Part shown: one piece after another, positions 20,975-63,870 of the stretch
Layout: each line of letters starts with the position of its first letter
Position numbering within the stretch: the first letter of the stretch is position 1
IMG/VR virus record: IMGVR_UViG_3300035034_001389
DNA: 64,000 bases
DNA from: an uncultured virus (IMG/VR IMGVR_UViG_3300035034_001389)
Lineage: Duplodnaviria; Heunggongvirae; Uroviricota; Caudoviricetes
Reading direction: 5' to 3' (one strand)
Made by a program: the position numbers and the translations under genes
Notes under the pieces: generated by a model
Databases searched by the model: none
The model's input: only the letters and a program-made list of their open reading frames with translations
Told to the model about the DNA's origin: nothing

Positions 20975-22030
20975 ATGCGATTTGAATATACACAAGGGTT
21001 AGCTTATAACACAACTGCTTCTAATTTTTTAGAACGCAATGTTACTGGTGGTGTGGATATAAGTATACCTAAGACATCAAATATATCTGTGATCTTCTCA
21101 CATGGTGAAGGTAACTATTTAGTAGAACAAGGTAGATTGGCAAAGGCATGGAACTTTGCATTTTCTGACACATCATCATATTGGCTATATTTTGATATTG
21201 ATGTGTTGGATGCTAAGTTAACATATGGGTTTACAACACTGGCACCCAAATTTGGTTTAACACGCCCATCAACACCAACAACTGGTGAAAATTTCTTTGA
21301 TAAAAATATTAATAAAATGCTAGAATGGAACGGTGGGAGATGGATTGAAAAAATACGTGTGTTTGCAGGTAGTTTAAAAAATGGCAACCTTACTACCAAT
21401 AGTTCAAGAACCCAAGTAGACGCACATTTCGATGTTAATGCTGAAAACATTTCACTATTTAATGCATCACACCCAAGTCGCATTGAATTTGGAAATGGTG
21501 ATTTTATTTTCTTAACGAATGGTGATAGTATTAATGACATCAATTCATTTAAATTTAAAAGATTGGATTACCCACTCATTGCTGCTCGTGATTTACCTCA
21601 ATACACGGCAGTAATGTTAGATGATAATGGTGAACTGGTACCCGCAACTAATCGAGAACAAGTAAAGGAAGCTATTGGTATCGTTGATATAGAATATTCT
21701 GCCGGTGATGATGTTCTACCAATAATAAGAGGATTTATAAGCGACCCATCATTTTTTGCATTTTCTGAAAGTGCAATGTGGCCTCTGTTTACAGACGATA
21801 GTGGTGCAATAACTCCAACAGCACCAACCACATCCGCACTACAGAAAATAGGATTTGTTGTAAATGTTAATACTATGTACGTTGATATAACTCCAAAATT
21901 ATTAATTATTGGTGTCACACCACCTAATGTTACAGTAACTCCAACTCTAACCCCATCAGCTACGGTAACTCCAACTCCAACTGTTACACCAACAGTAACC
22001 CCATCACCATCACCATCACCATCAGTATAA
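20975..22030 (+). CDS. Virion structural/decoration protein, paralog 1 (shared ~310-aa module plus Thr/Pro tail ending PSPSV)
   Basis: Motifs QG, WLYxD, WNGxxW, RVFAG and AIGI are shared with the next two ORFs. Confidence 0.6.
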   Translation: MRFEYTQGLAYNTTASNFLERNVTGGVDISIPKTSNISVIFSHGEGNYLVEQGRLAKAWNFAFSDTSSYWLYFDIDVLDAKLTYGFTTLAPKFGLTRPSTPTTGENFFDKNINKMLEWNGGRWIEKIRVFAGSLKNGNLTTNSSRTQVDAHFDVNAENISLFNASHPSRIEFGNGDFIFLTNGDSINDINSFKFKRLDYPLIAARDLPQYTAVMLDDNGELVPATNREQVKEAIGIVDIEYSAGDDVLPIIRGFISDPSFFAFSESAMWPLFTDDSGAITPTAPTTSALQKIGFVVNVNTMYVDITPKLLIIGVTPPNVTVTPTLTPSATVTPTPTVTPTVTPSPSPSPSV

Positions 22031-24444: not shown

Positions 24445-26616
24445 ATGTTAACAGTAATTAGACAAGGAATAATAGAAATCAACGCACCTACTAACTTTTT
24501 AGAGTTATCTGGTGATGATGTAAATATTATTGCTAGTACTGGAAGCACAATATTTACATTTGCAGATATTGATACTAATTATTTACATACTGAAAATAAT
24601 GATGTGACTCCTGCATGGGAAGGTCCATTTGATTCTTCTGATAGATGGTTGTATATTGATTTAGATGTGACAACCGGAATAAGAACATTTGGTACTACAA
24701 TTGTAGAACCACAATTTGGAACATCTAAACCCCAAAACCCAACAACAGATTTACATTATTTTGATTTAGATGCTAATGTAATGTATGTGTGGAATGGTAA
24801 TAGTTGGGATAGGAGAATTCGGGTTTTTGCTGGAACATTAGAAGATGGTGTCACATTAACTGAGTATGCGGTTGGTTCTCAGGTAGGATTAACGGGTTCA
24901 TTTTCAATCGGAGCTATTGTTACAGATTTAACTTCTAATATTAAGAGGGCCAATGGGACATTCCTCACTACAGAAACACCATTGTCAAAAACATTTAACG
25001 AAACAAATAACAGTGCACAGGAAGCTAGAATATTTAGGGCTAAAGCAAATACAGGTATACGTAAATTTCAACCAGTTGTATATGTAGAATCAAATGAAAT
25101 TAAACCAGCTAGTTCATTGGATGTTTCTTTAGGTGGATGCATTGGCATTGCTACAATGGATATGAAAATGGGTGATGTAAGTGATGTATATAGATACGGA
25201 TATATAGAAAATTCAGAATGGAACTTTACAGAATCTCCCGGAACATCATTATTTCTTAATAGGCAGAATGAAATAACTAGTAACACCCCTAATGTTGGAT
25301 ACATTCAAAAGCTTGGGCATGTTGTTTCTGCAACTAAAATATTTCTAGATATTCAAGAACGTGTCATTGTTGGTGTTATACCACCCTCATCAACCCCCTC
25401 ATCAACCCCCTCATCAACCCCAACAGTCACACCAACCCAAACGGTTACTGTGACACCGACCGTTACTGTGACACCGACCGTTACAGTAACCCCAACGGCC
25501 ACAGTAACCCCAACTCCAACAGTATCACCATCCGTAGCAGGTCCACAACCATTCATATCTGAATGGACTACAACCGGGGCTGGCGAATCAATAGAATTGC
25601 CACTAAGAGCAACTGGTGGTTATACTTTTGATGTGGACTGGGGTGATGGGGACAATGATACAATAACAACATATAATCAATCCGAAGTAACACATACGTA
25701 TGCGGTGGCAGATACTTATACTGTAACTATTACTGGGACAATAATAGGATTCTCATTTAATGGACCAGTTGACGCTACAAAGATAACAAACATTTCACAA
25801 TGGGGAACATTACGATTAGGAAATGATGGTGGGTATTTTAATGGATGTACCAATCTAACTATAACTACACCCGATGACACACTTGATATGACAGGAACTA
25901 CAAATTTATTCCGAGCATGGCGACAATGTGAAAGTATGACTTCATTTCCACTAATAGATACTAGTAATGTTACCAATTTTACTTCAGCTTGGGAAGAGTG
26001 TTCTTTACTTTCAGAGTTCCCACTAATTGACACTAGTAGCGCATTATCATTGGAATATACTTGGTCGTATTGTGGCTTAACATCATTCCCATTAATAAAC
26101 ACTGCAAGTGTAACTGATTTTGAAGGAAGCTGGGAAGGATGTTCATTACTTGCAACCTTCCCATTAATTGATGTGAGTGGGGCGACATTACTAGCATTTA
26201 CTTGGAATGCATGTGGATCACTCACATCATTTCCACTAATAGATATTTCGGATATAACTGTGTTGCAAGCAACATGGTTTAACTGTACTGGGCTAACTAG
26301 CTTTCCAACGATGGACTTTACTAACGTAATAACACTAAATCAACCGTGGTCGGGCTGTACAAGTTTAACAACATTAGGCACTGATTTCGGACTCACAATG
26401 GGCAATGTTACTACATTTACCTCAACATTTTCTTTTGCTCCATTAAATACTACTTCTTATGAAGCACTACTAGTTGATTTGGAGGCAGTTAATGCGACTA
26501 ATAGTGTATTCTTTAGTAGTGATGGTACTTATAATGACCCTAGTGCCGGTGCAACCGCTAGGCAGGCTCTTATTGATGATCACTCATGGACATTTTTCGG
26601 TGACTCTAGCATATAA
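24445..26616 (+). CDS. Virion protein, paralog 3 (shared module, mucin-like linker, PKD-like domain, BspA/DUF285-type leucine-rich repeats)
   Basis: VDWGDG...HTYA...YTVTITG (PKD-like); ~23-aa repeats SFPLIDTSxVTxFxxxWxxCxxLT. Confidence 0.7.
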   Translation: MLTVIRQGIIEINAPTNFLELSGDDVNIIASTGSTIFTFADIDTNYLHTENNDVTPAWEGPFDSSDRWLYIDLDVTTGIRTFGTTIVEPQFGTSKPQNPTTDLHYFDLDANVMYVWNGNSWDRRIRVFAGTLEDGVTLTEYAVGSQVGLTGSFSIGAIVTDLTSNIKRANGTFLTTETPLSKTFNETNNSAQEARIFRAKANTGIRKFQPVVYVESNEIKPASSLDVSLGGCIGIATMDMKMGDVSDVYRYGYIENSEWNFTESPGTSLFLNRQNEITSNTPNVGYIQKLGHVVSATKIFLDIQERVIVGVIPPSSTPSSTPSSTPTVTPTQTVTVTPTVTVTPTVTVTPTATVTPTPTVSPSVAGPQPFISEWTTTGAGESIELPLRATGGYTFDVDWGDGDNDTITTYNQSEVTHTYAVADTYTVTITGTIIGFSFNGPVDATKITNISQWGTLRLGNDGGYFNGCTNLTITTPDDTLDMTGTTNLFRAWRQCESMTSFPLIDTSNVTNFTSAWEECSLLSEFPLIDTSSALSLEYTWSYCGLTSFPLINTASVTDFEGSWEGCSLLATFPLIDVSGATLLAFTWNACGSLTSFPLIDISDITVLQATWFNCTGLTSFPTMDFTNVITLNQPWSGCTSLTTLGTDFGLTMGNVTTFTSTFSFAPLNTTSYEALLVDLEAVNATNSVFFSSDGTYNDPSAGATARQALIDDHSWTFFGDSSI

Positions 26617-30512: not shown

Positions 30513-33500
30513 ATGAACCTAAGAGAATTATTCAGAAATATCAAGACTAAAGAGTTGGAAATTGGCAATCCTGATGGAAAAGTGATATGCCCATATACTC
30601 ATGTCCAAACTGATCCACTAATTGAGTGGAACGTTAACCATTCTAATAATTCACTTTTACTTGCCGTTCAGGTATATGTTGATGATATATTGGTAGAACC
30701 TGATGCGATAGTAATTGACACGCTAAATAGATTCACTGTAAAGTTTCTTGAACCAACTGTAGGTAGGGTTAACTTCGTCATTTTGCGTACAGATAATGGT
30801 GAATGTGGTGATATTGTGGTTACACCGACACCAACCGCCACAGTGACACCAACATTGACACCAACTACCACAGTGACACCAACTATTACACCATCTGTAA
30901 CGGTTTCACCAACTATTACGCCAACTGTAACCGCAACAACTGATTTAACACCTACAGTAACAGTAACTCCAACTGCCACACCTATTGGTTCAGCAACACC
31001 AACACCAACAGCTCCGGTAACACCATCTATTACACCAACTAATAGTATCACACCTACACCATCTTTTACACCGGGGCCATCGTTCGGTGCTACACCTACA
31101 CCAACGGCCACTGCAACAGCAACACCTACAGCAACACCAACACCAACGGCCACTGCAACAGCAACACCTACAGCAACACCAACACCTACTGTAACAGTAA
31201 CACCATCACCATCACCATCACCATCTGACGTATCAGCACTTATATTAGACGAGGCAATAGTGCGATATAATTTTGGAGCTTCAGAGTTTACTGGACTAAT
31301 TGCCGATGGTATTAATAATATTTCAGTTGGTACAGTTGATCCATATGTGATATTCACAAGTGGTGGCATATCAACTCCAAATTCAGTAGCCTCAGATTTA
31401 ACAACCGTAATGGATGTACGTGCGTATGTAAGAAAAACTGATTATAATGCAGGTATGGTTACAGAAATTATAGCATCAAAGTGGAATGTGGTTAGTAATC
31501 AACGTGGATTTGCATTCGGTTTCAAAAATGATAAGTTAGTATTATCTATATCTGATAATGGTTCAACCATTGAAGAACAATTATCAGCCGATGTTCTACC
31601 ATATGCTAATAATACATGGAAATGGTTACGTTTTACATACGACGGTACAGTATCTGAACTAAAATTTTATGATTCAGATGATGGCACAAATTGGAATCAA
31701 ATAGGTACTACCATATCAACAACAGCTACCACGGCATTTAGTAATACTTCTGATTTGTATGTGGGTGATGTAAGTTCAAATACTGAAACGTTAGATGGGG
31801 CTATACAAAGAGTAGAATTTCATGATACTATAGATGGCATTACACCGGATGTACTTTTTGATGCAACTGAAAGAGTTTCGGGTAATTCATGGCTTTCATC
31901 AATAGGTGAAACATGGACACGGGACATAGATTCCACATTCTTTGTAGATTCCACACCTAAACACCACGTATATTTACCAAGTGGGTCAGGAAATTCTGTA
32001 GGCACAACGGCATATTCACCAAGTGGTGATTTAGACCTACAAATTGAGGTTGCTCCTGATAGTTGGGACACTGCTTCTACACAAACTTTAATCGCCAGAT
32101 ATGACACTGACACTGACACTAGGGCGTTCGAATTTTCAATCGATGGTACTGCGAGTAATGGACTTAATCTGAATGTTTCCGATGATGGTACGTCACAAGA
32201 AGCTTTATATTCTGGGTCAATATTACCATTTGTTTCTGGTCAGCGAATATGGCTAAGAGCAACATACAACACATCAACCACTACAGCTAACTTCTATTAC
32301 TCAGACGATAATCGCACCACATGGCAATCACTAGGTACCGATTCAGGTACAATAGCAAGTATATTCAGCACTGCGAACCCATTATACATTGGAGCATCAA
32401 ATGATGGTACCACAAACACTTGGTCAGGTAAAGTATATCGTGCGGTAATATATGAAACTGTAGATGGAATCACACCCGTAAAAGACTTTAATCCATCAAA
32501 TAAGACGTTATTCTCTGATACTGATTGGTTGGCACCAACAGGTGAAACATGGACACCAGAAGGAACCTCAATAATTAGAGAGGAATTTGACCTAGATACC
32601 ACACTAGATACAAATGATAACATGATACTTCCACCGGGAACGCTATACTTAAATGGCAATTCTGGAACTTATGGTGAAAGTATAGATGTTGATATAATTG
32701 CAGACTTAACCTTAATTGCATATGTATCCCTAGATGATGTAACACCAGCATCCACATCCACAATAATATCAAAGTATGTTGTCGCAGGTGACAATAGGGC
32801 ATTTAATTTCAATGTTGACAGCAGTGGAAATCTTAGCATTTTAATATCGAGTGATGGTACTGCTGCTAACACTGATACTATAACGTCATCAGTAATTCTT
32901 CCTGCCACAGCAGGGGTCTTATTATGGGTGAGGGCATCATTTGATGCTACCAATCAGGAAGTAACCTTTTTCACATCAACTGACCCTAGTAATATACAGA
33001 TGGGTAGCATGACTTGGACTGAACTTGGGGTAGCACAGGCTACTACAGTATCATCAATAAACACAAACTCAATTAATATAGAATTAGGTTCCTCTGAACT
33101 TGGTACATCTAACATGTGGACTGGTACTATATCAAAAGTGTATGCAATTAATAGCATAAACCCATTGGATGACGCCATAATAACATTTGATGCAACTGAA
33201 TATGTAGATTCAAATACATTATCATCTCCAAATACATTTATATCTCATGGTACACAATGGTCATTATTTGGAGATTATGTCATTCAAAATAGTAAATATA
33301 ACTCAATATTCACCTTCGGTGATGGTGGATTTGAAACATCTATATCAGATAACCTTAGCCCACCATTTACAATAATGTTTAATGCTAAATTCACTGACAT
33401 ATCACCATCAGCAGACCAGATAATTTTCGATTCTAGATCATCTGCAACTAATTTTATCAAAATATTTACCGACTTTTCTAACAGTAACAATATAACTCTT

Positions 33501-36347: not shown

Positions 36348-39300
36348 ATGGTAGAAAGAAGATATAATGATTCATATAGAGTATTATATGATAAAGACTC
36401 TGGTGAATATATTGCTGGTAATGATTTAGTTGTCGATGGCTTAGTAAGCATCGAACTATACAATATAAAGACTGCTTCAAAAAATTGGAAGTTGCGATTA
36501 CCTGTTGCTGCGGAAGTCATGTTTGTTTATGTTTATGAAATTAATGATGATGAAACATTTAGTATGGTCGTACCAGATAGTATAATAATATCATCAGAGA
36601 TTGAAGTTAATGTATCATTTACTGATGAAGTGCGTGGTATAGCGTCGGTTCTGTATGTAGGTGCTTCTACAGTTGAAATTAATGTAATTTCTCCAACACC
36701 AACACCAGCAGCAACCGCAACCCCAACACCAACACAAACCGTTACACCTACAGTATCAGTATCACCAACACCAGCAGTAACGGTTACACCAACTATATCA
36801 CCATCAGCGAATGTTACACCAACACCAACTATTGCACCTACAGTAACACCAACGGCAACACCCGAACTAACAGTATCACCGACCGTAACAGTAACGCCAA
36901 CGGCAACACCACTCGGAACACCGGACGTTACCGTATCACCAACAGTATCACCGACCGTAACAGTAACACCAACAGTAACACCAACGGTTACAGCTACTAC
37001 ATCCGTAACACCTACAGTAACACCAACAGTTACCGTATCACCAACAGTTACTGCAACACCCGAACTAACAGTATCACCTACAGTAACACCAACGGCTACA
37101 GTAACACCAACGGTTACAGTATCACCAACGGTTACAGTATCACCGACCGTAACAGTAACACCAACTATAACACCGACTGTAACCGCTACTCCATCAGTAA
37201 CGCCAACTATAACACCAACATTAACACCAACTATGACAGTAACACCAACGGTAACCACATCACCAGAGGCCGAACCAGTTGAAACAATTATTAACAACTC
37301 GCTAGCATTGTATAGTGCTGGAACTATGAATATCACTAGTGGTAGTGTAACTAGTATAATAAATGAAAAAGAAGAAGGTGGCAATAAATATATACAATTT
37401 GGTGGAAGTGGTTATATGTCTTCTCCTGACAGTATATTAAATTCCAATACAGGTGATTTAGATATACGTGTGTTTTGTGGTGACATTGAATGGGATTCCA
37501 CATCTGGTGCTGCTTTGGTCGGTAAATATGAGTCCGGTGAAAAAAGTTGGGCATTCTATATAGGTACTGGCCAAAATATGTTCCTTATTTTAAGTGAAGA
37601 TGGAACAACTGAAGCTGATACCATTTCAAACGGTGTTTCATTATCTGATATCCCAGATGGTTCATGGAAATGGTTGCGGGTGACATTTAATTCTGTAACA
37701 GGCGATATACAATTCTACATATCAGATGATGGTGATAATTGGGACACGAGTGGTACAGTTAAGAGTACCACAGTCACAACACTATTTGACTCAAGTGGTG
37801 CTGTGGAAATAGGATCAATAGCATCAGGTACCGGACTATTTAATGATGAGGGGTTATTCACTACTATTGAAGTTTATGATACTATTGATGGAATATCACC
37901 TACCATTCACTACGATGCCAATGATCACACAACAGGCAACACATTTGTTTCCTCAGTAACGGGTGAAACTTGGAGTAAAAATGGTATTAATGGAATGTCA
38001 TTCCAGAATCAATATATTAATAGGTATGGTGAATTTGCCGGTGGTATTGGTGGAGGCTCTAGAATATATGCCGATGATAGTGCAGCAAATTCACTAACAG
38101 GTGATATTGACTGTAGGGTATTACTAAGTTCTGATGGTTCTTGGAATAATTCAACTGCACGAGTTTTTGCTGCAAAATATAATAGTTCTGCTGGCCAGCT
38201 TTCATGGCTATTTCAGAAAATATCCGGTGGTCTTTTTCGAGTTCTTCTGAGTTCAGATAATTCAGCAGTATCGGTTGTACCAAGTGATGTTGCTGTCGGA
38301 TTCCCAGATGATAGTACTGTATGGGTTAGATTCACATATGATTCATTCGCTGGTGATATTAATTTCTATTGGTCTGACGCGACAGATGGTACAGTATGGC
38401 AACAATTAGGAACCACTCAAACTATAACACCAATGGGAATATTCGATAGTACCGCAGAATTTAGTCTAGGTGCAAATAACGATGGCAATAGTAATAGATT
38501 CCAAGGTAATATTTACCGTGCTGAACTATACGACACTATTGATGGCATCACACCTGTTTCAGTTTTTGATCCAAGTGAAGATACCACACTATCTGGAAGT
38601 AGTTGGACTAGCGCAACTAACAGTGAAACTTGGAATGTTGGTGGTGATGTTGAACTGAGAAGTGACTATACATTAAATGTAATTAATGGTACAGCGTCTA
38701 ACTTATCTAAGGTATCTAAGGGTGATATAGTTTTCTCATCATCATATATTGTAGGCCCAACGACCGGGTTATCATCTGGAGATTTGACCACTATAGCACA
38801 CATCAAGAAGGAAAATTGGGATAGGAGTGAGGCAATTGTATCTAAATGGAATTCTAGTGCATTTGATAATTTTAAATCATTCGCATTTAGATTTGATTCA
38901 GATAGCCTAGTTCTGGATATATCACCAGATGGAAGCAGTGAAGTTACCGCAACCTCAACTATTGCAACCTCATTCGGTACAAATGATTCTGCTTGGGTTA
39001 GAGCAACTTTTAATGATACTACTGATGAGGTATCATTCTTTACTTCCACCGATCCTGAAAATACTGCATTGGAAAGTATATCATGGTCAGCATTAGGAAC
39101 TACAGTTTCATTAGTTTCTGCTGGTATAAACACCAGTGCACAGGAAATTATTATAGGTTCTAAGAGAGGGGGCGATGATCTAACATATAATCTAACCTCA
39201 ACATCAGTAATGAGACACATTGCGGTTATTGATGATACCGATCCAACAACCACACCTATAATGCAATTAGATGGTTCAGATTATGTTTCAGGAACTACAA

Positions 39301-48891: not shown

Positions 48892-48919
48892 ATATATACT
48901 ATAATTAATAGGAGTTTAC

Positions 48920-49546: not shown

Positions 49547-49551
49547 ACCAC

Positions 49552-49579
49552 TTGCATTATTCTAAAATAATGCTATAAT
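49552..49579 (+). promoter_or_regulatory. Sigma70-type promoter for the replication operon
   Basis: TTGCAT, 16-nt spacer, extended -10 TGC-TATAAT. Confidence 0.7.
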
Positions 49580-49622
49580 ATTCGGCTACAACAATTCATA
49601 AAAACTTAATAAGGAGAATAAT

Positions 49623-49925: not shown

Positions 49926-49928
49926 TTA

Positions 49929-54760: not shown

Positions 54761-55101
54761 CTCTTTTTAGAGTTAACATAAAGACCAAATATTGCAGTTG
54801 ATAGACCGATTATAGTAGTTGCCAAGGCAGCTTGCTCTAGGGTTGGGCCACCAGCAACACCATCAACAGTACATGAAAGTTCGTGGACCTTATCAATGGG
54901 TATTTTAGATCGTATTAAAATTTCTACCATAGCCTCATTGCATTTCTCATTAATATATGTTGGAATGCTGGTAATCCAATTATATAGTTTATATACAAGA
55001 AAACCATAGCCTGCAAGTAGCAGTCTAGGTATTACTCTAAAATTATCTAAAATTTCTGATATTTTAGATAATTTTTTATAAATTGTATTTGATTCACTCA
55101 T
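54730..55101 (-). CDS. Two-TM membrane protein (holin-like candidate)
   Basis: LDNFRVIPRLLL...W and PTLEQAALATTIIG...FGLYVN hydrophobic segments; start reassigned to ATG 55101 behind CATAAATA (55114-55107). Confidence 0.55.
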   Translation of the reverse strand: MSESNTIYKKLSKISEILDNFRVIPRLLLAGYGFLVYKLYNWITSIPTYINEKCNEAMVEILIRSKIPIDKVHELSCTVDGVAGGPTLEQAALATTIIGLSTAIFGLYVNSKKSQPRRDLDEN

Positions 55102-55139
55102 ACATTTATTTATGTAAATAATAATATAATGGTATAAAA

Positions 55140-56879: not shown

Positions 56880-56894
56880 AAGCCTTAAAGGTTT

Positions 56895-56925
56895 AAAAGG
56901 GGGGGAAACCCCCTTTTTATTTTTT
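56895..56925 (+). terminator. Rho-independent terminator
   Basis: AAAAGGGGG-GGAAA-CCCCCTTTT followed by a T-rich tail. Confidence 0.85.
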
Positions 56926-56950: not shown

Positions 56951-56958
56951 CATAAATA
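56951..56958 (+). promoter_or_regulatory. Late promoter variant (CATAAATA) heading the glycosylation cluster
   Basis: CATAAATAGT, the same 10-mer as upstream of the tail sheath gene; downstream of a terminator; AGGAG SD follows. Confidence 0.6.
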
Positions 56959-56983
56959 GTTTAACATATCTAGGAGAATAATT

Positions 56984-58372
56984 ATGGAAGCCAACACCAT
57001 TTTTGTTCAGATTGCATCATATCGTGATCCTGAACTAATCAACACACTTAATGGGTTAATAACCTACGCAGAAAAACCTGAAAACTTACACATTTGTGTC
57101 TGTTGGCAACATGGCCCAGAAGACACAACTGATATTTTTCTAAACTCTGATTTTTATATATATAATTTTGATGAAATAGAAGATGATGACGGTGTTAAAA
57201 GTACAGTTATGAACATGACTAAAAATGGTGCGAAATTATCAGTCATTGATTTTGATTATAATGAAACAGAGGGTGCTTGCTGGGCGAGATACCAAATTCA
57301 AAAGCGTTATTCTGGTGAACGATATACTCTACAATTAGATTCACATCACAGATTTGTCCCCAATTGGGATGAAATATGTATTGACATGCTAGAGTCAGTA
57401 CGCAGCGAAGACACACCTAAGCCACTATTGACTGGATATATACCATCATTTGACCCTGATAATGACCCTAGTGCCAGAGTACAAATACCTTGGAAAATGG
57501 ATTTCGATAGGTTCATTCCAGAAGGTGCAGTGTTCTTTAGACCATCTTCAATTGATAACTATAAGGAACTTACAAAGCCTATGTGCTCACGTTTTTATTC
57601 AGCACATTTTTGTTTTGTTGATGGTGACTTCACAGAGAAGGTACCACATGACCCTGATTATTTCTTCCACGGTGAAGAAATATCTATAGCAGTTAGAGCA
57701 TTCACACATGGATATGATCTATTTCACCCCCACAAAGTTGTGGCTTGGCATGAATATACACGAAAGGGTAGAACTAAAGTCTGGGATGATCACACAACAA
57801 CTAGTAAGAATGATGGTAATATCAAGCTAGATTGGGTTGAACGTAATAATCTTTGCCATAAGAGAAACCGAATACTATTTGGCATGGATGGTGAAGACCC
57901 AGCACAAATTGACTTTGGTAAATTTGGATTTGGTGATGTTAGAACTGTCAGAGAATATGAAGAATATGCTGGCATTAGTTTTGAATACCGTGGTGTACAA
58001 CAGCCAACATTGGATAGGAAAGACCCACCCAACAATATCCCATATGATAATGAGAAACAGTGGAAGGTATTGTTTGCACGTTCTAATGATGTACACATAT
58101 GCCTACATAAAAATGAATTAATTGAGAGTGGTGAAGAACTATTGGATGATTATGACTTTTTCTATGTCGGTACACATGATGAAAATGGTGACGAAATACA
58201 TCGGAAAGACATTACTAAAGATGAAATATACCAATATATAAATAGTGATAACGGTTTCGTTGATTATCGACTAATTTTTCTTTCGACTAAACGCCCAACA
58301 CATTACACGGTATGGGTACATAGTGAAAGTAAAGAATGGATGAAAAAAATAACTAAGCCTATTGACTATTAG
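56984..58372 (+). CDS. GT60-like (PF11397 GlcNAc) polypeptide/hydroxyproline alpha-GlcNAc transferase
   Basis: TIFVQIASYRDPEL, GACWAR, LQLDSHHRF...WD (DSH metal motif), FFHGEE...RAFTHGYDLFHP, WHEY. Confidence 0.85.
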   Translation: MEANTIFVQIASYRDPELINTLNGLITYAEKPENLHICVCWQHGPEDTTDIFLNSDFYIYNFDEIEDDDGVKSTVMNMTKNGAKLSVIDFDYNETEGACWARYQIQKRYSGERYTLQLDSHHRFVPNWDEICIDMLESVRSEDTPKPLLTGYIPSFDPDNDPSARVQIPWKMDFDRFIPEGAVFFRPSSIDNYKELTKPMCSRFYSAHFCFVDGDFTEKVPHDPDYFFHGEEISIAVRAFTHGYDLFHPHKVVAWHEYTRKGRTKVWDDHTTTSKNDGNIKLDWVERNNLCHKRNRILFGMDGEDPAQIDFGKFGFGDVRTVREYEEYAGISFEYRGVQQPTLDRKDPPNNIPYDNEKQWKVLFARSNDVHICLHKNELIESGEELLDDYDFFYVGTHDENGDEIHRKDITKDEIYQYINSDNGFVDYRLIFLSTKRPTHYTVWVHSESKEWMKKITKPIDY

Positions 58373-58380
58373 GTGAAAAC

Positions 58381-60699
58381 ATGAAAAATGAATTAATAAT
58401 AGCAAGTTATGGTTCCCATAATGCCGCTGTTGCAATGTTCTATAAAGGCACGTATACTGTAATTGAGGTAGAACGCTGGTTAAGTAAAAAAAATGCTGGC
58501 TTAATAACATACTTGCCAGCATCAAATCCTAATATTATATTGGAAGAAATCACTGAGTTTTTACTTTCTAAAACTGATAGAAGTGAAGTAGATTTATATT
58601 TAACAAACTATGGTGATTTGTCAAAACTGAAACCATCCTTTAATTATGTTAAGAGTTTAACGTTTGATCACCATGAAGCACACGCAGCATGTGCATTTTA
58701 TCAATCCCCTTTCGATAAAGCATTAACCTTCACATTTGATGGTGGTGGTGATGCCGGTTATTTTAATGTATACATGACAGATCGACAAAATGGCGTCACA
58801 TTACTTAATAAATTTAACCAAGATTTAGGATTTGCATATATGATTCTTGGTGATCACCTTGATGAAATTACACGTGACCCACTAAACATTGGCAATCTTG
58901 TTTATGCCGGTAAACTAATGGGACTGTGTTCATATGGAAATATTCGAGATGAATGGATTCCACACTTTACTGAATTCTATGAAACATTTACATATAGTGG
59001 GGACTCATACCTTGGTGGTGCAGAAGCAGCTAAAGATGCTCTCCCAAAATTGATGGAAGCCATACAGGTTAAGAATTATACTAAGGATACTAGAATAAGT
59101 GGTCAGATGTCATGGGACATTGCGGCAACAACACAACATGTATTTGAAGAACAATTTTTTAAATTTGCACAACCTTATTTTGATCAATATCCAGATATCC
59201 CAGTGACCTTAGCTGGAGGGTGTGCATTGAATGTTATATTGAATACTAGAATATTAAGGGAACGTGGTAAGAATGTTTTTATACCACCTAACACCAGTGA
59301 CTGTGGTATAGCTGTGGGTGGAATATTACTTAATCAGAAGCCAGAGTATCAGGTTGATTTAACATATGCAGGTGCGCCCGTTTTAGATGAACATATGTTC
59401 TCATCATATATTGAAAATGGCATGTTTAGTGTAGTGGAAGATGTATCTATTGAAAGTTTAGCTAACTATATAAACAATGGTCATATTGTAGGTATTATTA
59501 ATGGGAACTCGGAACATGGCCCAAGAGCACTAGGCAATAGAAGTATAATATGTAATCCAGTTGGCGATATGAAAAACATACTTAATGATAAAGTTAAAAA
59601 TAGAGAATGGTATAGACCATTTGCACCATTAGTTCGTCTAGAGGACGCACCAACATATTTTGATTTCCCAGAAGGTGCACAATCTCGACATATGACGTAT
59701 GTTGCTGAAGTACGAGAAGAATATAGAGATATTATACCAGCCGTAACACACGAAGATAATACTGGTAGATTGCAGACTGTGACCCGCCAGCAGAATAGCT
59801 TTATATATGATCTATTAACCGAATTTGATAAGGTTTCTGATCATAGTGTATTATTGAACACATCATTCAATGTCAATGGAAAACCAATTTTGACCAGAAT
59901 ATCAGAAGCTCTTGAAATATTAGAAACTTCAAAACTTGATGCCGTATTTTACAAGAACCGTCTAATATTTAGAAGGGGTGAAGAGAAAAAATTCGAGAAA
60001 AAATCAATCAATATTAACATCAAGCCATTATCAAATGAAACTACTGTAAATATATTTGTAACACCCACAAATAATGATAATTTATTATCAGCATACATAC
60101 CGAAGATTTCTAAAATTTGTCAAGATTCTAAAGTTGTATTGATAATAGAAGAGAAATATATTAAATATTGTCAACTTGCATTGTCTGACTTTGAAGTTGA
60201 GTATTTTCCCATTAATATAACCAGCTTTTACTATCATGAATTAGTTCAAAAAAGTTTACCCAATTTAAATATGGTGATGTCTGAATATCTAAATATTATA
60301 CGAATGTTGTGGGCCAAAAATGTAATGCTTGAGAATTTACATAGAACACAAAATCACATATTTGTAACTTTAGGAAATGTTATGTATTCAATGGATATTG
60401 TTAATGATATTAAAACTATATCCGAAGCATGTAAAGAGGGTGATCAAATTATTACTACCTCTAGAACATACACAGGATCACCAGCAGAGGACATACTTGG
60501 CAAGCATCACATTGGTAAGGTTCCTACCAAAATCCCATCTATGGACATTGTAGCAGGCCATATATCACAGATAGATTGGTTATGTACAAACATAGAGGCA
60601 CATCTACTGAGCATGTTACGTTCTGGGGGGGTGTCATCAGATTATGATTATGTTGTGGTTCCTTTCATGGAAAGTAATCATAAGTTCAGGTTAATATAA
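58381..60699 (+). CDS. NodU/CmcH-family O-carbamoyltransferase with a ~230-aa C-terminal extension
   Basis: HHEAHAA, DGGGD, GKLMGL, GGCALN, GPRALGNRS, KNREWYRPFAP, RLQTV, LNTSFN. Confidence 0.92.
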   Translation: MKNELIIASYGSHNAAVAMFYKGTYTVIEVERWLSKKNAGLITYLPASNPNIILEEITEFLLSKTDRSEVDLYLTNYGDLSKLKPSFNYVKSLTFDHHEAHAACAFYQSPFDKALTFTFDGGGDAGYFNVYMTDRQNGVTLLNKFNQDLGFAYMILGDHLDEITRDPLNIGNLVYAGKLMGLCSYGNIRDEWIPHFTEFYETFTYSGDSYLGGAEAAKDALPKLMEAIQVKNYTKDTRISGQMSWDIAATTQHVFEEQFFKFAQPYFDQYPDIPVTLAGGCALNVILNTRILRERGKNVFIPPNTSDCGIAVGGILLNQKPEYQVDLTYAGAPVLDEHMFSSYIENGMFSVVEDVSIESLANYINNGHIVGIINGNSEHGPRALGNRSIICNPVGDMKNILNDKVKNREWYRPFAPLVRLEDAPTYFDFPEGAQSRHMTYVAEVREEYRDIIPAVTHEDNTGRLQTVTRQQNSFIYDLLTEFDKVSDHSVLLNTSFNVNGKPILTRISEALEILETSKLDAVFYKNRLIFRRGEEKKFEKKSININIKPLSNETTVNIFVTPTNNDNLLSAYIPKISKICQDSKVVLIIEEKYIKYCQLALSDFEVEYFPINITSFYYHELVQKSLPNLNMVMSEYLNIIRMLWAKNVMLENLHRTQNHIFVTLGNVMYSMDIVNDIKTISEACKEGDQIITTSRTYTGSPAEDILGKHHIGKVPTKIPSMDIVAGHISQIDWLCTNIEAHLLSMLRSGGVSSDYDYVVVPFMESNHKFRLI

Positions 60700-61646
60700 T
60701 GAATATATCATTTGTAACATCGGTATATGATGATTTATCTAATACTAAATTTGCTGGTAGACATAATCGGGGCACCCAGTATGCATTTTCGTTGGCTCAG
60801 ATGCAACACATGGGTGTCCCAATTTATATCTTTACTGATAAGCGCAATATACAAAAGAACCTTCCAGCAATTTACAGCCATAGTTTAGATAATGCTAAAT
60901 TCATAAACTATGAACTAGATAAATATCCACTCTATAATGATATACAAAAAATTAAAGATAGTAACCCCGAAGTATATAGAAATGAAGCAGGGTGGTCAAG
61001 TCGGTGTGTTGAAATAATGTGGAGTAAATTTGATTTAGTTGAACATATTATTAATAAAGTTGGAATATCTGAAGATAATTTTGTATTTTGGATAGATGCT
61101 GGATTATCACATCCCGGAGTATTACCATACAAATATAATTCCATATATAACCCCGAAATGGAATATCCAAATCAATCAAAGGAATATCATGATGGTTTTT
61201 ATTTTGACCAAATTTTTAATAATGAATTTCCAGAGTATCTAGCAAATTATATAGGTAAAAATAAAATATTCCACATGATGTGTAATTCACCACAGCATAA
61301 TGACCCATCTTTTATGGGTAATATTGAAACTGTAAAAACTGGCACGGTTGTGGGTGGATTATTTGGTGGAACTACTAATGTATTATTAGACTGGGTGCTT
61401 GAAGGTAAGGATATTTGTCAGCAATTAGTAGACCATAATCAATTGGTTAAAGAAGAAGACATATTGAGTTATATGGTAAACAAGCATATGGTGGAAGATG
61501 AATCGTTTATTGATGAAAAAATAAAACTTTATTTATTCGATACATGGTATCATGAAGATTGGTTAAAAAATTGGGATAAAACATTATATGACCCCAACAC
61601 TGCAATATCATTTTCAGATTTTTTTAAAGAATTCACAGGTAGATAA
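60699..61646 (+). CDS. HtrL/YibB (WlaTC)-like putative glycosyltransferase
   Basis: FVTSVYD, MWSKF, FWIDAG, GGLFGG, KEEDIL; TAATG-coupled to the carbamoyltransferase. Confidence 0.7.
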   Translation: MNISFVTSVYDDLSNTKFAGRHNRGTQYAFSLAQMQHMGVPIYIFTDKRNIQKNLPAIYSHSLDNAKFINYELDKYPLYNDIQKIKDSNPEVYRNEAGWSSRCVEIMWSKFDLVEHIINKVGISEDNFVFWIDAGLSHPGVLPYKYNSIYNPEMEYPNQSKEYHDGFYFDQIFNNEFPEYLANYIGKNKIFHMMCNSPQHNDPSFMGNIETVKTGTVVGGLFGGTTNVLLDWVLEGKDICQQLVDHNQLVKEEDILSYMVNKHMVEDESFIDEKIKLYLFDTWYHEDWLKNWDKTLYDPNTAISFSDFFKEFTGR

Positions 61647-61675
61647 TTAAAATAAATAGATTTAAAGGTATTTAA

Positions 61676-63316
61676 ATGAACAACGATTTAACATTAGTTA
61701 CAGCACTATTTGATATTAAACGAGGTGATCTTAACCCCGGTTTCGCTAGAGGGTTCGATCATTATATTGAAACATTCAGACGCTTATTGAAGACGGAATT
61801 ACCTATGGTTATATTCTGTGATAAAGAAGTTGAAAAGATAGTGTGGGAGGAAAGAATTCCAGATAATACTAGAATTGTATCTAAGACCCTTGCTGACTTA
61901 AAAAACTTTCCATTTTATGAACAGACTAATGAAATACGCAATCAACCTGAATGGAAAAATAGAAGTGGTTGGATTACAGATAGTCCACAATCGGAACTAG
62001 AGTTATATAACCCATTAGTTATGAGTAAACAATTCTTTTTGAATGATGCATCAATATTTAATTTCTTCGAAACTAAGTATTTTTTATGGATGGATGCGGG
62101 AATAGCTAACACGATTGGTGACCCATGTGCATATATGAATTTTGACTTTGCTAAAAAAATAACAGAACATATGCAGAGAATGATGTATGTGTGTTTCCCA
62201 TATGATGGTGAAGTAGAAGTACATGGGTTTGAAAAAGAAGAATTTGATAAAATTGCAGGGTGTAAAACTGATAGAGTTGCCAGAGGTGGAATGTTTGGTG
62301 GTCCAGCCCATGTTATTCGTGAGATTAACGACATATATTATCAACTACTTGGAAATACGTTAAACTCTGGATATATGGGAACCGAAGAAAGTATTTTTAC
62401 CTTGATAACATATCAGCGTCCAGACCTTTGTAATATTGTCAACATTGATAATAATGGTCTAATAATTAAGGCATTAAATGATATTCAAAATGACACTAAA
62501 GTATATACTCAAGAAAAGTTAGCTATATATGCCCTTACCTACAACCTACCTCAACAATTTGAACATTGGGTGAAATCATTTGTATCTGCATTTCCCAAGG
62601 AATTTGAAAGTATGAAAAAGTATGTAATTAATAATTCCAATGATCCAAAAGTTGATGCAACATATAAAGAATTGTTTGAACAATATGGATTTGAAGAATT
62701 CAAGTTTGACAATGTAGGTATAAATGGTGGTAGACAATTTGCCGCAGAGCATTTTGATGCAAGTGATCATCAGTATATGGTATTCTTCGAAGATGACATG
62801 CTAATGCATCAGCCCAATGCAGGTCCATGCAAATCAGGATTCACAACATATCACCCTGAAATATTTGATAAGTGTATGGAAATCATGGCAACTGAAAAGC
62901 TTGATTATTTGAAAATGTGTTTTAGTGAATTTTATGGTGTTAATCATCATAACTGGGCATGGTTTAATGTACCACCTAGCAAAAAAGAATTATATTTCCC
63001 TGAACAGTCTGATACAGAAATACGCCACCACACCAATATTAAGAGAACTAATACACTAAGAGGATTACCCTATGCTGTAGGAGAGTACCATTATTGTAAT
63101 TGGCCACTAATGTTTAACAAGAGTGGAAGCTTTAAGGTATTTCTAGAAGATAAATATGAGCATCTATATGAACAGACATGGATGAGTCATACGATGAATC
63201 TTATACATGATAGGCGTATAAATCCGGGATGCCTTTTAGCCTCAACTATTAATCATGACAGAAAGTTTCATTATGATGGTGACACACGCCGGGAGAATGA
63301 ACACTATACTAATTAA
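61676..63316 (+). CDS. Two-domain protein: HtrL/YibB-like domain plus GT-A/GT2-like domain
   Basis: LTLVTALFDIKR, YNPLVMSK, LWMDAG, GGMFGG, TEESIF; second domain NVGINGGRQF...MVFFEDD. Confidence 0.75.
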   Translation: MNNDLTLVTALFDIKRGDLNPGFARGFDHYIETFRRLLKTELPMVIFCDKEVEKIVWEERIPDNTRIVSKTLADLKNFPFYEQTNEIRNQPEWKNRSGWITDSPQSELELYNPLVMSKQFFLNDASIFNFFETKYFLWMDAGIANTIGDPCAYMNFDFAKKITEHMQRMMYVCFPYDGEVEVHGFEKEEFDKIAGCKTDRVARGGMFGGPAHVIREINDIYYQLLGNTLNSGYMGTEESIFTLITYQRPDLCNIVNIDNNGLIIKALNDIQNDTKVYTQEKLAIYALTYNLPQQFEHWVKSFVSAFPKEFESMKKYVINNSNDPKVDATYKELFEQYGFEEFKFDNVGINGGRQFAAEHFDASDHQYMVFFEDDMLMHQPNAGPCKSGFTTYHPEIFDKCMEIMATEKLDYLKMCFSEFYGVNHHNWAWFNVPPSKKELYFPEQSDTEIRHHTNIKRTNTLRGLPYAVGEYHYCNWPLMFNKSGSFKVFLEDKYEHLYEQTWMSHTMNLIHDRRINPGCLLASTINHDRKFHYDGDTRRENEHYTN

Positions 63317-63870
63317 ACTGATGGTGATGGTGTAGGTGTAGGTGTTACTGTTGGAGTAGCACTCTGTGTCAACTCTGGCTCTGATACTGTAACGGATGCT
63401 GTTAATGTTGGTGTAAGTGCTGGTGCTGTAAAGCACCCACCACCAGCCTGTATATTAAGATCAGGCTCTGGAATGGCATTCGGTGAATCAACCCTCTGCT
63501 CAATTTGCAACGCAACCCATGATGTTTTAAATATTTCTTCAAATTTCGATTTTGTAGAAAAAGCATCCTTAAGTATTTCAAAGAATATATAATTAACGTC
63601 TTCTCTTCTAAATGTCTCATATATCAAATTCATTGTGGTTATAATATCATTGGGTGTATTGAAATTCAGATTGTTATTCACAAATGCATCAATATCTACA
63701 CCATCAAATTCCCTATTAGGTGAATTCAATATTGCAGTAATTGTTGATTTGGCAAGAGTAGGGTCAACAAATATCTGATCTGGACCTAGCCCATATCTAG
63801 TATCTGTACCATATTTTTCATCATATAATGATCGCTCTAATGATGGCAATAATTTTGTTCTATCTGTCAT
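63313..63870 (-). CDS. Structural protein, possibly the detached C-terminal domain of the giant baseplate protein, with Thr/Pro tail ending PSPSV
   Basis: PSLERSLYDEKYGTDTRYGLG...IFKTSWVAL followed by a mucin-like tail. Confidence 0.6.
   Translation of the reverse strand: MTDRTKLLPSLERSLYDEKYGTDTRYGLGPDQIFVDPTLAKSTITAILNSPNREFDGVDIDAFVNNNLNFNTPNDIITTMNLIYETFRREDVNYIFFEILKDAFSTKSKFEEIFKTSWVALQIEQRVDSPNAIPEPDLNIQAGGGCFTAPALTPTLTASVTVSEPELTQSATPTVTPTPTPSPSV

Follow-up and report, generated by a model that had tools for sequence, protein, structure and literature searches.

What would an uncultured phage make with a clustered set of glycan-building enzymes: sugars on its own virion, on the host envelope, on its DNA, or on a free small molecule? 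The locus in question lies in a stretch of 64,000 nucleotides (the window) from a jumbo phage, a relative of Xanthomonas phage XacN1. The answer favoured here, at a probability of roughly 65%, is that the cluster works as a cytoplasmic cassette for protein O-glycosylation, expressed late, which modifies Thr/Pro tracts on baseplate and tail-appendage proteins of this same phage before or during assembly.

Layout and expression signals of the cluster

Four co-oriented ORFs of the + strand span 56984-63316, downstream of a terminator and a CATAAATAGT box. An earlier note had described them as a GT60-like gene, a carbamoyltransferase gene and two HtrL/YibB-like genes, starting after a terminator at the late-promoter variant of the sheath gene. 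The gene set is borne out by ORF calls, Pfam, hhalign and the ESM Atlas, and the start by a hairpin and an identical 10-mer.

56894..56919, + strand: intrinsic-terminator-like hairpin (11-pair stem, 5 GC pairs) with T tail, closing the upstream unit
56951..56960, + strand: CATAAATAGT, T4-type late-promoter-like box of putative promoter function, 33 nt before the GT60 start
56984..58372, + strand: ORF1, GT60/PF11397 glycosyltransferase, 462 aa, proposed HexNAc initiator on Thr (Pfam, PHROG, model)
58381..60699, + strand: ORF2, TobZ/NodU/CmcH-type carbamoyltransferase (1-529) with a third HtrL-like GT-A domain (~550-772), 772 aa (Pfam, PDB, Atlas)
60699..61646, + strand: ORF3, stand-alone HtrL-like putative glycosyltransferase, 315 aa (sub-threshold Pfam, hhalign, Atlas)
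61676..63316, + strand: ORF4, two-domain glycosyltransferase, 546 aa, proposed glycan extender (Pfam, model, fold searches)

The same 10-mer as CATAAATAGT lies 49 nt upstream of the sheath gene at 40717, and TATAAATA precedes a further 16 ORFs by 13-58 nt, most of which encode tail and baseplate proteins. Since the bare 8-mer CATAAATA is not over-represented (6 found vs 11 expected), the evidence for a late box is one of position rather than count.

None of the four proteins has a membrane segment, and neither a flippase nor a polyprenyl-phosphate transferase was found in the cluster by Pfam and membrane-segment checks. These absences, and the late-type box in common with the sheath gene, argue against synthesis or remodelling of a host envelope glycan (LPS core, O-antigen or exopolysaccharide) in the course of infection, for instance for superinfection block or progeny release, with the tracts as plain linkers. 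Such an envelope function, which we judge quite unlikely, would fit HtrL/YibB, named for a gene close to the E. coli LPS-core genes, and NodU, whose carbamoylation substrate is an oligosaccharide of GlcNAc and not a protein. It would also fit the HtrL-type genes of bacterial LPS/LOS loci, including Acinetobacter LOS outer-core loci, as given in published titles and abstracts.

A GT60 protein with a predicted fold close to polypeptide GalNAc-transferases

The GT60-like identity proposed for ORF1 was confirmed by a match to PF11397 ('GlcNAc') across nearly the full profile (positions 1-351 of 352; E 4.7e-76, 257 bits vs a cut-off of 21), alongside a match to phrog_24687 (E 2e-176). Its AlphaFold model (pLDDT 89.6) has a catalytic GT-A domain (~1-360) and a beta-rich C-terminal domain (~363-462). 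For this predicted structure, the two best VIA-align matches are an animal and a Toxoplasma polypeptide GalNAc-transferase (mGalNAc-T1, Z 21.5, rmsd 3.8 over 283 residues; TgGalNAc-T3, Z 19.8), followed by generic GT-A enzymes at Z <=15.7, and the first eight ranked Foldseek matches are ppGalNAc-Ts (E 8e-9 to 4e-8), as are most others listed. A model so distinctly polypeptide-transferase-like speaks against an envelope target.

The GT27 polypeptide GalNAc-transferases (metazoan and apicomplexan), which initiate mucin-type glycosylation and supply those top two matches, carry a D-x-H type metal motif similar to the invariant D119-S120-H121 of ORF1. They share, however, only 12-15% sequence identity with the phage enzyme and belong to another Pfam/CAZy family, and VIA-align gave no alignment between their ricin-type lectin domain and the C-terminal domain of the phage protein (model range ends 352-365). 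The phage protein is instead in the same Pfam family as the protist GT60 enzymes, such as Dictyostelium Gnt2 and Trypanosoma cruzi OGNT-2. According to the available text of two papers (PMC3769586, PMC8724618), characterised GT60 enzymes transfer alpha-GlcNAc onto Thr-rich peptides; the first of them describes the protist enzymes as Mn2+-dependent, with Thr-rich, Pro-flanked acceptors such as KP2T8KP2, to be compared with 36% Thr and 24% Pro in the window tracts. These protist enzymes, from which donor sugar and linkage are extrapolated, had no match in the PDB sequence search. They are eukaryotic Golgi membrane proteins, whereas the phage GT60 is soluble, would act in the bacterial cytoplasm and has an extra C-terminal beta domain of ~100 residues.

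A carbamoyltransferase fused to an HtrL-like domain

PF02543 and PF16861 end at residue 529 of ORF2, which matches TobZ, GdmN and novobiocin carbamoyltransferase in the PDB sequence search (E 1e-43 to 1e-34). New relative to the earlier note is a predicted third HtrL-like domain fused to this enzyme (~550-772; Atlas structure TM 0.74 to HtrL_YibB clusters). The fusion distinguishes ORF2 from TobZ, NodU and CmcH, and a description of the carbamoyltransferase plus HtrL-like glycosyltransferase architecture was not found in the literature. The label NodU-type, proposed earlier, stands as regards the TobZ/NodU type and both Pfam domains, but not as regards NodU equivalog status (160.7 bits vs a cut-off of 1000).

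That low score counts against a free carbamoylated oligosaccharide or glycoside, Nod-factor-like or antibiotic-like, serving in signalling or host manipulation, and Pfam found no acyltransferase, chitin-synthase-type NodC or export genes in the cluster. Such a product would suit the nearest solved carbamoyltransferases, which act on tobramycin, geldanamycin and novobiocin, but would leave the tract association described below unexplained, and we hold it to be extremely unlikely.

Hypermodification of phage DNA, with hydroxymethylated bases decorated against restriction, is suggested by a phage enzyme of the TobZ-like family that shares PF02543 and PF16861 with ORF2 and turns DNA 5hmC into 5-carbamoyloxymethyl-C (available text of PMC8670742), by the well-known DNA-glycosylating phage glycosyltransferases (available text of PMC12619734), and by one distant contig whose carbamoyltransferase adjoins QueC and a radical-SAM gene. 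ORF2, however, has no paired Asp-type thymidylate-synthase homologue as in the 5hmC system: the homologue in the window has Asn at the dUMP/dCMP switch position (PMC8670742, available text) and matches true thymidylate synthases best, while three complete relatives have a single PF00303 gene each, likewise with Asn. Moreover, the carbamoyltransferase does not adjoin the thymidylate-synthase homologue but shares a chain with a glycosyltransferase domain, and carbamoyltransferases lie next to glycosyltransferases on unmodified contigs too (same source, available text). Both DNA and envelope modification are disfavoured, the former as very unlikely on the 64 kb of this genome covered, although a hydroxymethylase may be encoded elsewhere in it.

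The full-length fusion is kept in 8/8 XacN1-like loci, and only in this clade does the fused carbamoyltransferase accompany GT60; its link to the glycan system is weaker than the earlier note assumed, the more so as a phage member of the family acts on DNA.

Two-domain and stand-alone HtrL-like proteins

ORF4 consists of an N-terminal HtrL/YibB GT-A domain with a GT6/GT8-like fold (1-266; PF09612 HtrL_YibB, E 9.4e-19, residues 4-256) and a C-terminal GT2-like GT-A domain (280-530) with an invariant E372-D373-D374. The second domain, seen by the earlier note as GT-A-like, was corroborated in the model (pLDDT 86.2), where residues 280-530 match B4GALNT1 (Z 15.5), POMGNT1 (14.3) and GnT-I (13.8). 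The claim of two HtrL/YibB-like proteins holds by profile for ORF4; because ORF3 scores 18 bits against PF09612, under the 24.1 cut-off, its assignment as HtrL-like comes from hhalign, where residues 2-139 align to the ORF4 family at 94% probability, and from the ESM Atlas (structure TM 0.66-0.75 to HtrL_YibB clusters; feature score 0.98).

The best Foldseek whole-protein matches of ORF4 are bifunctional two-GT-A enzymes (LARGE1, K4CP chondroitin polymerase, PmHS2, LH3 and mimivirus R699; E 2e-12 to 1e-9), with which, at a whole-chain TM of 0.22-0.31 and rmsd of ~19-24 A, it has the architecture alone in common; two GT-A domains in one chain, as in LARGE1 and K4CP, do not imply repeat polymerisation for ORF4. 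A full-length homologue lies <=10 kb from GT60 in 22/36 viral loci, and distant loci carry variable glycosyltransferases and sugar O-methyltransferases between the two genes. Across phages, GT60 and the two-domain transferase make up the conserved core, and the decorating enzymes vary (the carbamoyltransferase here, O-methyltransferases and fucosyltransferase-like enzymes in other phages).

Thr/Pro tracts in the window

Thr/Pro tracts occur in seven ORFs of the window, with 18 sites of a TPTxTPT-coding pattern vs 0 in 100 shuffles:

20121..20519, + strand: tract, residues 3008-3140 of a 3289-aa virion structural protein (11100-20969; phrog_10938, E 5e-62)
21917..22021, + strand: tract near the C-terminus of a 351-aa protein (20975-22030)
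24363..24422, + strand: C-terminal (TP)n-SPSV tail of a 788-aa protein (22059-24425)
25384..25542, + strand: internal tract of a 723-aa protein (24445-26616)
30816..31223, + strand: 136-residue tract near the N-terminus of a 1941-aa protein (30513-36338)
36687..37277, + strand: 197-residue tract near the N-terminus of a 1168-aa protein (36348-39854)
63316..63372, - strand: C-terminal TPTVTPTPTPSPSV tail of a 185-aa protein (63313-63870), convergent with the cluster

The number of tract genes given in the earlier note is correct, but only one or two of the seven have a structural match, PHROG 'virion structural protein' being hit strongly by the 3289-aa protein and weakly by one other; for the remainder, a structural role is suggested by their position among the late baseplate/tail genes.

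GT60 and the tracts co-occur in phages and bacteria

All three GT60-positive isolates tested carry TPTxTPT sites (XacN1 51, Xoo-sp13 51, RAS14 22), as opposed to none in four GT60-negative jumbo relatives (RsoM2USA, Atu_ph07, PA5oct and Munch), picked by sheath similarity and confirmed with the profile to lack GT60; the co-occurrence check proposed earlier was therefore positive. Sites were found in 17/36 GT60-positive IMG/VR contigs (8/12 among those >=50 kb) vs 0/50 arbitrary viral contigs (~2.0 Mb in total; Fisher p = 2e-8), counts within the XacN1 clade being inflated by relatedness. Conversely, GT60, present in 4/50,697 phage records, was found in 11/47 contigs chosen for long tracts alone (6/9 of those >=100 kb). 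Contigs with both cover several lineages (DNA polymerase identity 46%, 32%, 26%, 27-31%, or no match), and tract ORFs frequently adjoin GT60 or the two-domain gene. This tracking is left unexplained by an envelope function.

The association has exceptions in both directions. A strict tract is missing from 19/36 GT60-positive contigs, most of them fragments <30% complete; one 118-kb contig (71% complete, with GT60 and both HtrL genes) lacks it and has just a single looser tract. GT60 is present in just one of six tract-bearing records >=90% complete, so tracts do not require the enzyme; complete phage records with tracts but no GT60 lend some weight to an envelope role.

The pairing recurs in bacteria, where a tract ORF lies <=10 kb away at 25/78 GT60 loci. 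Genome-wide, 43/47 sites (7.9 Mb), 71/73 (12.8 Mb) and 5/5 (4.5 Mb) adjoin GT60 in three bacteria, in one of them on the T6SS VgrG spike, and at three Burkholderiales loci the tract carrier is VgrG. An envelope target leaves these adjoining sites unexplained, and GT60-VgrG pairing has no DNA logic.

A further possibility, which we consider unlikely, is that proteins are glycosylated elsewhere than at tract Thr (hydroxyproline, other phage or host proteins, or a subset such as C-terminal tails), the tract association then partly reflecting common descent among large phages that have fibrous proteins. Skp1 Gnt1, a characterised GT60 enzyme, acts on hydroxyproline, Pro makes up 24% of the tracts, single-clade contigs are not independent, and the 118-kb contig has its one loose tract. 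On the other hand, a PF13640 prolyl-hydroxylase-type gene is absent from five GT60-positive genomes (four complete), the four GT60-negative relatives have no tracts, and the association repeats in bacteria and in lineages whose DNA polymerases have 26-46% or no similarity. These cross-phage and cross-bacteria sequence comparisons suggest a sugar-coating of threonine-proline tracts on the phage's own tail proteins.

Glycoproteins of XacN1 and of other virions

In XacN1, the cluster has its syntenic orthologue in ORF334-ORF330, with an identity of 63% for GT60, 60% for the two-domain protein and 47% for the carbamoyltransferase. Schiff reagent stains at least two protein bands of XacN1 virions (Yoshikawa et al. 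2018, PMC5852040, main text and legend of Suppl. Fig. S4), and the authors of that paper put forward the phage glycosyltransferases as the cause. In its available text, the paper names two glycosyltransferases only (ORF328 and ORF334), neither identifies Thr/Pro tracts as substrates nor points out the HtrL-like genes or the link to the carbamoyltransferase, and reports the glycoproteins as bands without protein names; the window phage is known from genes alone. In mycobacteriophages, capsid and tail-tube subunits bear C-terminal extensions that are O-glycosylated by phage-encoded glycosyltransferases (Freeman et al. 2023, Cell Host Microbe, as summarised in the available text of PMC12619734). 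The window phage likewise has a TPTPSPSV tail on two proteins and a near-C-terminal tract on a third, but, set beside that summary, differs in its long internal and terminal tracts on baseplate/fibre-like proteins, in belonging to Gram-negative jumbo phages, and in its GT60 initiator.

Proposed mechanism

The central idea of the earlier note, a cluster acting on the phage's own Thr/Pro tracts, is partly supported by co-occurrence in phages, the same pairing in bacteria, the GT60 fold, the late-type box, the lack of membrane segments and the Schiff-stained XacN1 proteins. In this O-glycosylation scheme, the T4-type late box, observed as motif and position, would drive transcription of the cluster alongside the tail genes. 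The soluble GT60 enzyme, with a metal bound at its D-x-H motif, would use UDP-HexNAc, most likely UDP-GlcNAc, drawn from the host pool and, as initiator, would place the first sugar (HexNAc) on Thr hydroxyls of (x-T-P-T)n tracts, as family, fold and co-occurrence suggest. Judging from fold alone, the two-domain protein, the stand-alone HtrL-like protein and the HtrL-like domain of the carbamoyltransferase may then extend the glycan. Finally, the TobZ/NodU-type domain would O-carbamoylate a sugar hydroxyl with carbamoyl phosphate and ATP via carbamoyl-AMP, a chemistry known for this family, its fusion to a glycosyltransferase domain pointing to a sugar as the target. If this is true, stalks or linkers on the virion appendages would, speculatively, be glycan-clad, stiff, hydrated and protease-resistant.

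A glycosyltransferase cluster in a T4-like jumbo myovirus

The window comes from a T4-like jumbo myovirus of about 35% G+C. Its genes include those for baseplate hub, baseplate wedge, tail sheath and tube, for a virion protein of 3289 aa, and for a family-B DNA polymerase and RNase H. Its nearest named relatives are the Xanthomonas phages XacN1 and Xoo-sp13 and the Stenotrophomonas phages RAS14 and CM1 (40–63% protein identity), which share its gene order around the cluster; XacN1 ORF334–ORF330 is the syntenic orthologue. The nearest record, the 34-kb fragment G001, is without the cluster, and a nucleotide search (megablast) with the cluster as query gave no match among phage records, so a protein-level search was needed to find relatives. 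The region holds four co-oriented ORFs, as the earlier note had described:

56984–58372 (+): ORF1, GT60, 462 aa; PF11397 'Glycosyltransferase (GlcNAc)'
58381–60699 (+): ORF2, carbamoyltransferase–HtrL fusion, 772 aa; PF02543 and PF16861, Atlas model
60699–61646 (+): ORF3, HtrL-like, 315 aa; hhalign, Atlas
61676–63316 (+): ORF4, two GT-A domains, 546 aa; PF09612 and predicted model

A membrane-segment-like stretch is present in none of the four proteins. Further upstream, a 267-aa protein with an N-terminus rich in Lys and Pro (55140–55943 (+)) matched 'integrase repeat unit' just under the threshold (24.9 against 26.5 bits); it is conserved beside the NUDIX gene in all XacN1-like loci.

ORF1 matches PF11397, which we take to be CAZy family GT60, with an E-value of 4.7e-76 and 257 bits (cut-off 21) over profile positions 1–351 of 352, i.e., across the whole catalytic domain, and the earlier GT60-like call thus stands. 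This equation of the two families agrees with PMC8724618. Since a PDB sequence search returned no relative of either the GT60 protein or the 546-aa protein, their folds had to be predicted. The ORF1 AlphaFold model (mean pLDDT 89.6) has polypeptide GalNAc-transferases at Foldseek ranks 1–8 and as most of the matches listed. A Foldseek-independent scan of 48,161 PDB representatives gave Z 21.5 for mouse GalNAc-T1 (rmsd 3.8 Å over 283 residues, model residues 1–352) and 19.8 for Toxoplasma GalNAc-T3, followed by generic GT-A enzymes 4–6 Z units lower (Z ≤15.7). As modelled, ORF1 has a GT-A fold related to that of the GT27 polypeptide GalNAc-transferases. The residues D119-S120-H121, presumably its catalytic D-x-H metal-binding motif, are invariant across 24 sequences, and a beta-rich C-terminal domain (residues 363–462) is barely covered by the fold searches. 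By its sequence, ORF1 belongs to PF11397 and is a putative enzyme; the GT60 reaction, in which UDP-GlcNAc donates alpha-GlcNAc to Thr (or Hyp) of a protein, would apply to it on comparative evidence. The system of the window would work in the way that protist GT60 and animal GT27 enzymes start mucin-type glycans (PMC3769586 and PMC8724618).

The PF11397-type family is large: of 8000 candidates that were scored, at least 7608 protein clusters belong to it at E ≤1e-10, and PF11397 is present in each of the 120 clusters listed. In a number of metagenomic relatives the PF11397 stretch recurs within one chain, twice in P0001 (797 aa, its N-terminal GT60 motif visibly repeated near residue 344) and P0094, and three times in P0005 and P0110; judging from these profile matches, some GT60 relatives are putative tandem GT60–GT60 fusions.

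Predicted partner enzymes and the possibility of DNA modification

ORF4 exceeds the PF09612 (HtrL_YibB) cut-off (68.5 against 24.1 bits), and ORF3, at 18 bits, falls under it and is related to the family through hhalign (94%) and Atlas (0.98), so that two HtrL/YibB-like proteins are recovered as first described. TIGR02192, the equivalog of E. coli YibB, scored 74.7 bits, below its cut-off of 264.9. The ORF4 model (pLDDT 86.2) consists of two GT-A domains, in line with the previously proposed fusion to a second GT-A-like domain. Its N-terminal HtrL domain is closest to GT6/GT8/GT24-type enzymes (BoGT6a, Z 13.1; UGGT, 12.2; GTB, 11.9; LgtC, 10.9) and its C-terminal domain to GT2-like ones (B4GALNT1, Z 15.5; POMGNT1, 14.3; GnT-I, 13.8). 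Whole-chain Foldseek matches are themselves two-GT-A enzymes (LH3, K4CP, LARGE1, PmHS2 and mimivirus R699), with which ORF4 shares architecture only, as the TM-scores are low.

Residues 1–529 of ORF2 form a TobZ/NodU/CmcH-type carbamoyltransferase (PF02543, 100.5 bits, and PF16861, 186.6 bits, both above cut-off; phrog_1601, E 4e-122). Its score against the NodU equivalog NF041651 of NCBIfam is 160.7 bits, far below the cut-off of 1000. In the ESM Atlas's own model, residues ~550–772 are similar to HtrL_YibB domains (TM 0.74) and resemble a third HtrL-like domain, missed at first reading. Among the 36 viral loci, the carbamoyltransferase–HtrL fusion occurs in all eight XacN1-like loci and nowhere else.

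The alternative that the cluster modifies DNA arises from PMC8670742, in which a phage enzyme of the ORF2 family produces 5-carbamoyloxymethyl-C in partnership with a thymidylate-synthase homologue of the Asp type. The thymidylate-synthase homologue in the 64-kb window, however, has Asn (…PMNIASY) rather than Asp at the position of E. coli N177, and its best matches are true thymidylate synthases; three complete relatives, compared via tblastn alignments, likewise have a single PF00303 gene each, all with Asn. On the evidence of the 64-kb window and these relatives, DNA modification by the cluster is very improbable. The homologues of XacN1 (L331) and Xoo-sp13 (L332) are ~32% identical to the window enzyme and retain the Asn, with the motif MRSWD...FNIMGY for QRSCD...MNIASY in the window, and could be either true thymidylate synthases or dUMP hydroxymethylases. 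In the window, a gene for an RlaP-type (RNA-repair-associated) nucleotidyltransferase adjoins the thymidylate synthase gene (28350–29177 (-) and 27475–28338 (-)), both on the minus strand within the tail-gene block.

Carbamoyltransferases near GT60 in three other viral loci (L017–L019) were dropped as support for a glycan link. The stand-alone TobZ-type enzyme of L018 (15201–19316, on a GT60-positive viral contig) was not counted because QueC and radical-SAM genes lie beside it, an arrangement that suggests a 7-deazaguanine-type DNA modification module apart from the glycosylation genes.

Thr/Pro tracts and late-type promoter boxes

Thr/Pro tracts are found in seven window ORFs, matching the number given in the earlier note, and in no other listed ORF. 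Of their 618 residues, Thr makes up 36%, Pro 24%, Val 13% and Ser 9%, and Lys and Arg are absent; the tracts consist mostly of (V/x)-T-P-T repeats and reach 197 residues in length. The window has 18 copies of the coding pattern ACN-CCN-ACN-NNN-ACN-CCN-ACN (TPTxTPT, used below as a strict tract site), and 100 shuffles have none. Both the 788-aa protein (24363–24422 (+)) and the 185-aa protein (63316–63372 (-)) end in TPTPSPSV, as if this tail were a portable C-terminal tag, and the tract of a 351-aa protein (21917–22021 (+)) stops two residues short of its C-terminus.

A hairpin followed by a T run (56894–56919) ends the unit upstream of the cluster, and the 10-mer CATAAATAGT (56951–56960) lies 33 nt before ORF1; the identical 10-mer is found 49 nt before the sheath gene, and within the window this variant precedes these two genes only. 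The earlier description of a cluster that starts after a terminator with the box variant of the sheath gene is thus correct. The related box TATAAATA stands 13–58 nt before 16 further ORFs (window 3007–56439), nearly all in the tail/baseplate block, a placement compatible with T4-type late promoters; no late-type box precedes any ORF in 46572–55943, the stretch with DNA polymerase (49929–52493) and RNase H (53783–54760). TATAAATA is the T4 late promoter, and the promoter argument built on this is positional only, because the bare 8-mers are not over-represented (CATAAATA, 6 against 11 expected; TATAAATA, 18 against 14.4 expected). A scan for sigma-70-type promoters did not discriminate, with 52 sites in the sequence and 50.8 in its shuffles.

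Co-occurrence of GT60 and tracts across phages

Co-occurrence of cluster and tracts across phages had been set beforehand as a test that could refute the proposed glycosylation of virion tracts, and the two do co-occur, in isolates as well as in IMG/VR contigs. Of 50,697 phage records, just 4 have a GT60 homologue, and the three GT60-positive isolates tested contain 51, 51 and 22 TPTxTPT sites. The next relatives by sheath similarity—RsoM2USA, Atu_ph07, PA5oct and Munch—have no GT60 in a profile search with XacN1 as positive control, and no site in any of them. Among 36 IMG/VR contigs encoding a GT60 relative, 17 have at least one site (8 of the 12 of at least 50 kb), as opposed to none of 50 control contigs totalling 2.0 Mb, which were drawn via an arbitrary 14-mer as the longest of 80 fetched (Fisher p = 2e-8). 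In the reverse direction, 50 contigs were picked solely for a three-unit tract, and GT60 was found in 11 of the 47 that were searchable (6 of the 9 of at least 100 kb), in six cases within 10 kb of the tract. Several lineages are involved, as the DNA polymerases of contigs positive for both GT60 and tracts are 46%, 32%, 26% or 27–31% identical to that of the window, or undetectable. The tract ORF is often an immediate neighbour of GT60 or of the ORF4 homologue (loci L005, L006, L010, L013, L014, L016, L022 and L038).

The strict site is absent from 19 of the 36 GT60-positive contigs, most of them less than 30% complete; a 118-kb GT60-positive contig that is 71% complete has no strict site and one looser tract. 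A 712-aa ORF with collagen-like GPT repeats (G117:C1:86416–88551 (-)) occurs on a GT60-positive viral contig nearly devoid of TPT tracts. Only one of six tract-bearing records at least 90% complete has GT60, so GT60 is not required for tracts.

In 22 of the 36 viral loci, GT60 has a full-length homologue of ORF4 no more than 10 kb away. In distant loci, the two genes bracket GT10-, GT17-, GT2-, GT7-, GT1- and RXYLT1-like glycosyltransferases as well as O-methyltransferases, one of which is fused to the ORF4 homologue. In overall layout, the putative initiator and extender are conserved, and the decorating enzymes differ from lineage to lineage.

Synthesis of an envelope glycan by the cluster would give no reason for this tract association, and it is further disfavoured by the lack of a membrane component in the cluster and by the late type of its box, which together leave it improbable. 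A route in which GT60 acts via hydroxyproline is likewise opposed by the five GT60-positive genomes searched, none of which has a PF13640-type hydroxylase. For direct glycosylation of virion proteins, XacN1 provides an anchor: according to Yoshikawa et al. (PMC5852040), its virions show at least two glycoprotein bands by Schiff staining, and phage glycosyltransferases are suggested as their source. The paper also names a public set of XacN1 virion proteomics data (ProteomeXchange PXD008065).

Tracts next to GT60 in bacteria

GT60 relatives were also found in 78 bacterial loci (34–66% identity), 25 of which have a TPTxTPT ORF within 10 kb. Whole-genome scans of five of these genomes, with site positions covering four of them, show that bacterial tracts concentrate next to the GT60 gene: it has beside it 43 of the 47 sites of a Paraburkholderia genome (7.9 Mb), 71 of the 73 of a Saprospiraceae MAG (12.8 Mb), all 5 of a Jiulongibacter genome (4.5 Mb) and at least 23 of the 48 of an Achromobacter genome; the fifth genome has 17 sites in total. 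The ORF4 homologue is often missing from bacterial tract loci, which makes GT60 the constant partner of the tracts.

The tract carrier in three Burkholderiales loci is a T6SS VgrG spike with a (PT)n extension. These genes (L363:15087–17582(-), L397:15067–17550(-) and L340:13906–16464(-), from Paraburkholderia, Achromobacter and Paraherbaspirillum) lie ~4–6 kb from the GT60 homologue and encode Phage_GPD, base_V and Gp5_trimer_C domains and a long (PT)n stretch; a single VgrG gene holds the 43 Paraburkholderia sites and, in Achromobacter, the at least 23. In two Gemmatimonadaceae loci from MAGs, the carrier is a protein of ~250 aa that combines a PqqD-like (RiPP-recognition-type) domain with a Thr/Pro tract (L352:8438–9232(+) and L371:9212–9952(+)), located directly 5' of GT60 and the ORF4 homologue; these loci might represent a glycosylated peptide system.

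Discussion

The observation made in the earlier note is confirmed as a whole. Of its interpretation, supported in part, the link between the putative enzyme and the tracts is strongly supported by sequence comparison across phages and bacteria, and the chemistry and function proposed go beyond that support. We put the probability that the cluster O-glycosylates the Thr/Pro tracts of the phage's own tail and baseplate proteins at roughly two in three.

Phage-encoded virion glycosylation as a phenomenon is already known, from mycobacteriophages (Freeman 2023, as summarised in PMC12619734) and as a hint in XacN1. Chemical demonstration of virion glycans has so far come from mycobacteriophages, and the XacN1 anchor, Schiff-stained bands, is indirect. 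What can be named here, as predicted roles, are GT60 as the enzyme family, x-T-P-T repeats as the acceptor motif and the two-domain glycosyltransferase as a conserved partner. We found no paper linking PF11397/GT60 to phages, and the literature searched describes neither this enzyme family in the role nor its acceptor motif, the architecture of multiple GT-A domains with a carbamoyltransferase, or the parallel with bacterial VgrG.

More tentatively, and with the odds somewhat against it, GT60 and Thr-Pro tracts may constitute a widespread, undescribed prokaryotic 'mucin-type' O-glycosylation system for contractile-injection machinery, spanning proteins of the baseplates and fibres of many large phages as well as T6SS VgrG spikes of bacteria with their C-terminal (PT)n, with carbamoyl, methyl and fucosyl-like decorators that diversify the exposed glycan in the style of O-antigens. 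If so, the first step of mucin-type glycosylation, carried out by GT60 in protists and GT27 in animals, would have a prokaryotic or viral counterpart, possibly a prokaryotic origin. Should glycosylation of the tracts itself hold, glycan-clad stalks would be borne by a large number of environmental jumbo phages and by some T6SS spikes. This would matter for adsorption and protease resistance, for how the immune system recognises therapeutic phages and for the annotation of 'hypothetical' tail proteins, and would make bacterial cytoplasmic mucin-type glycosylation a testable concept, with XacN1, Xoo-sp13, RAS14 and CM1 as cultured systems.
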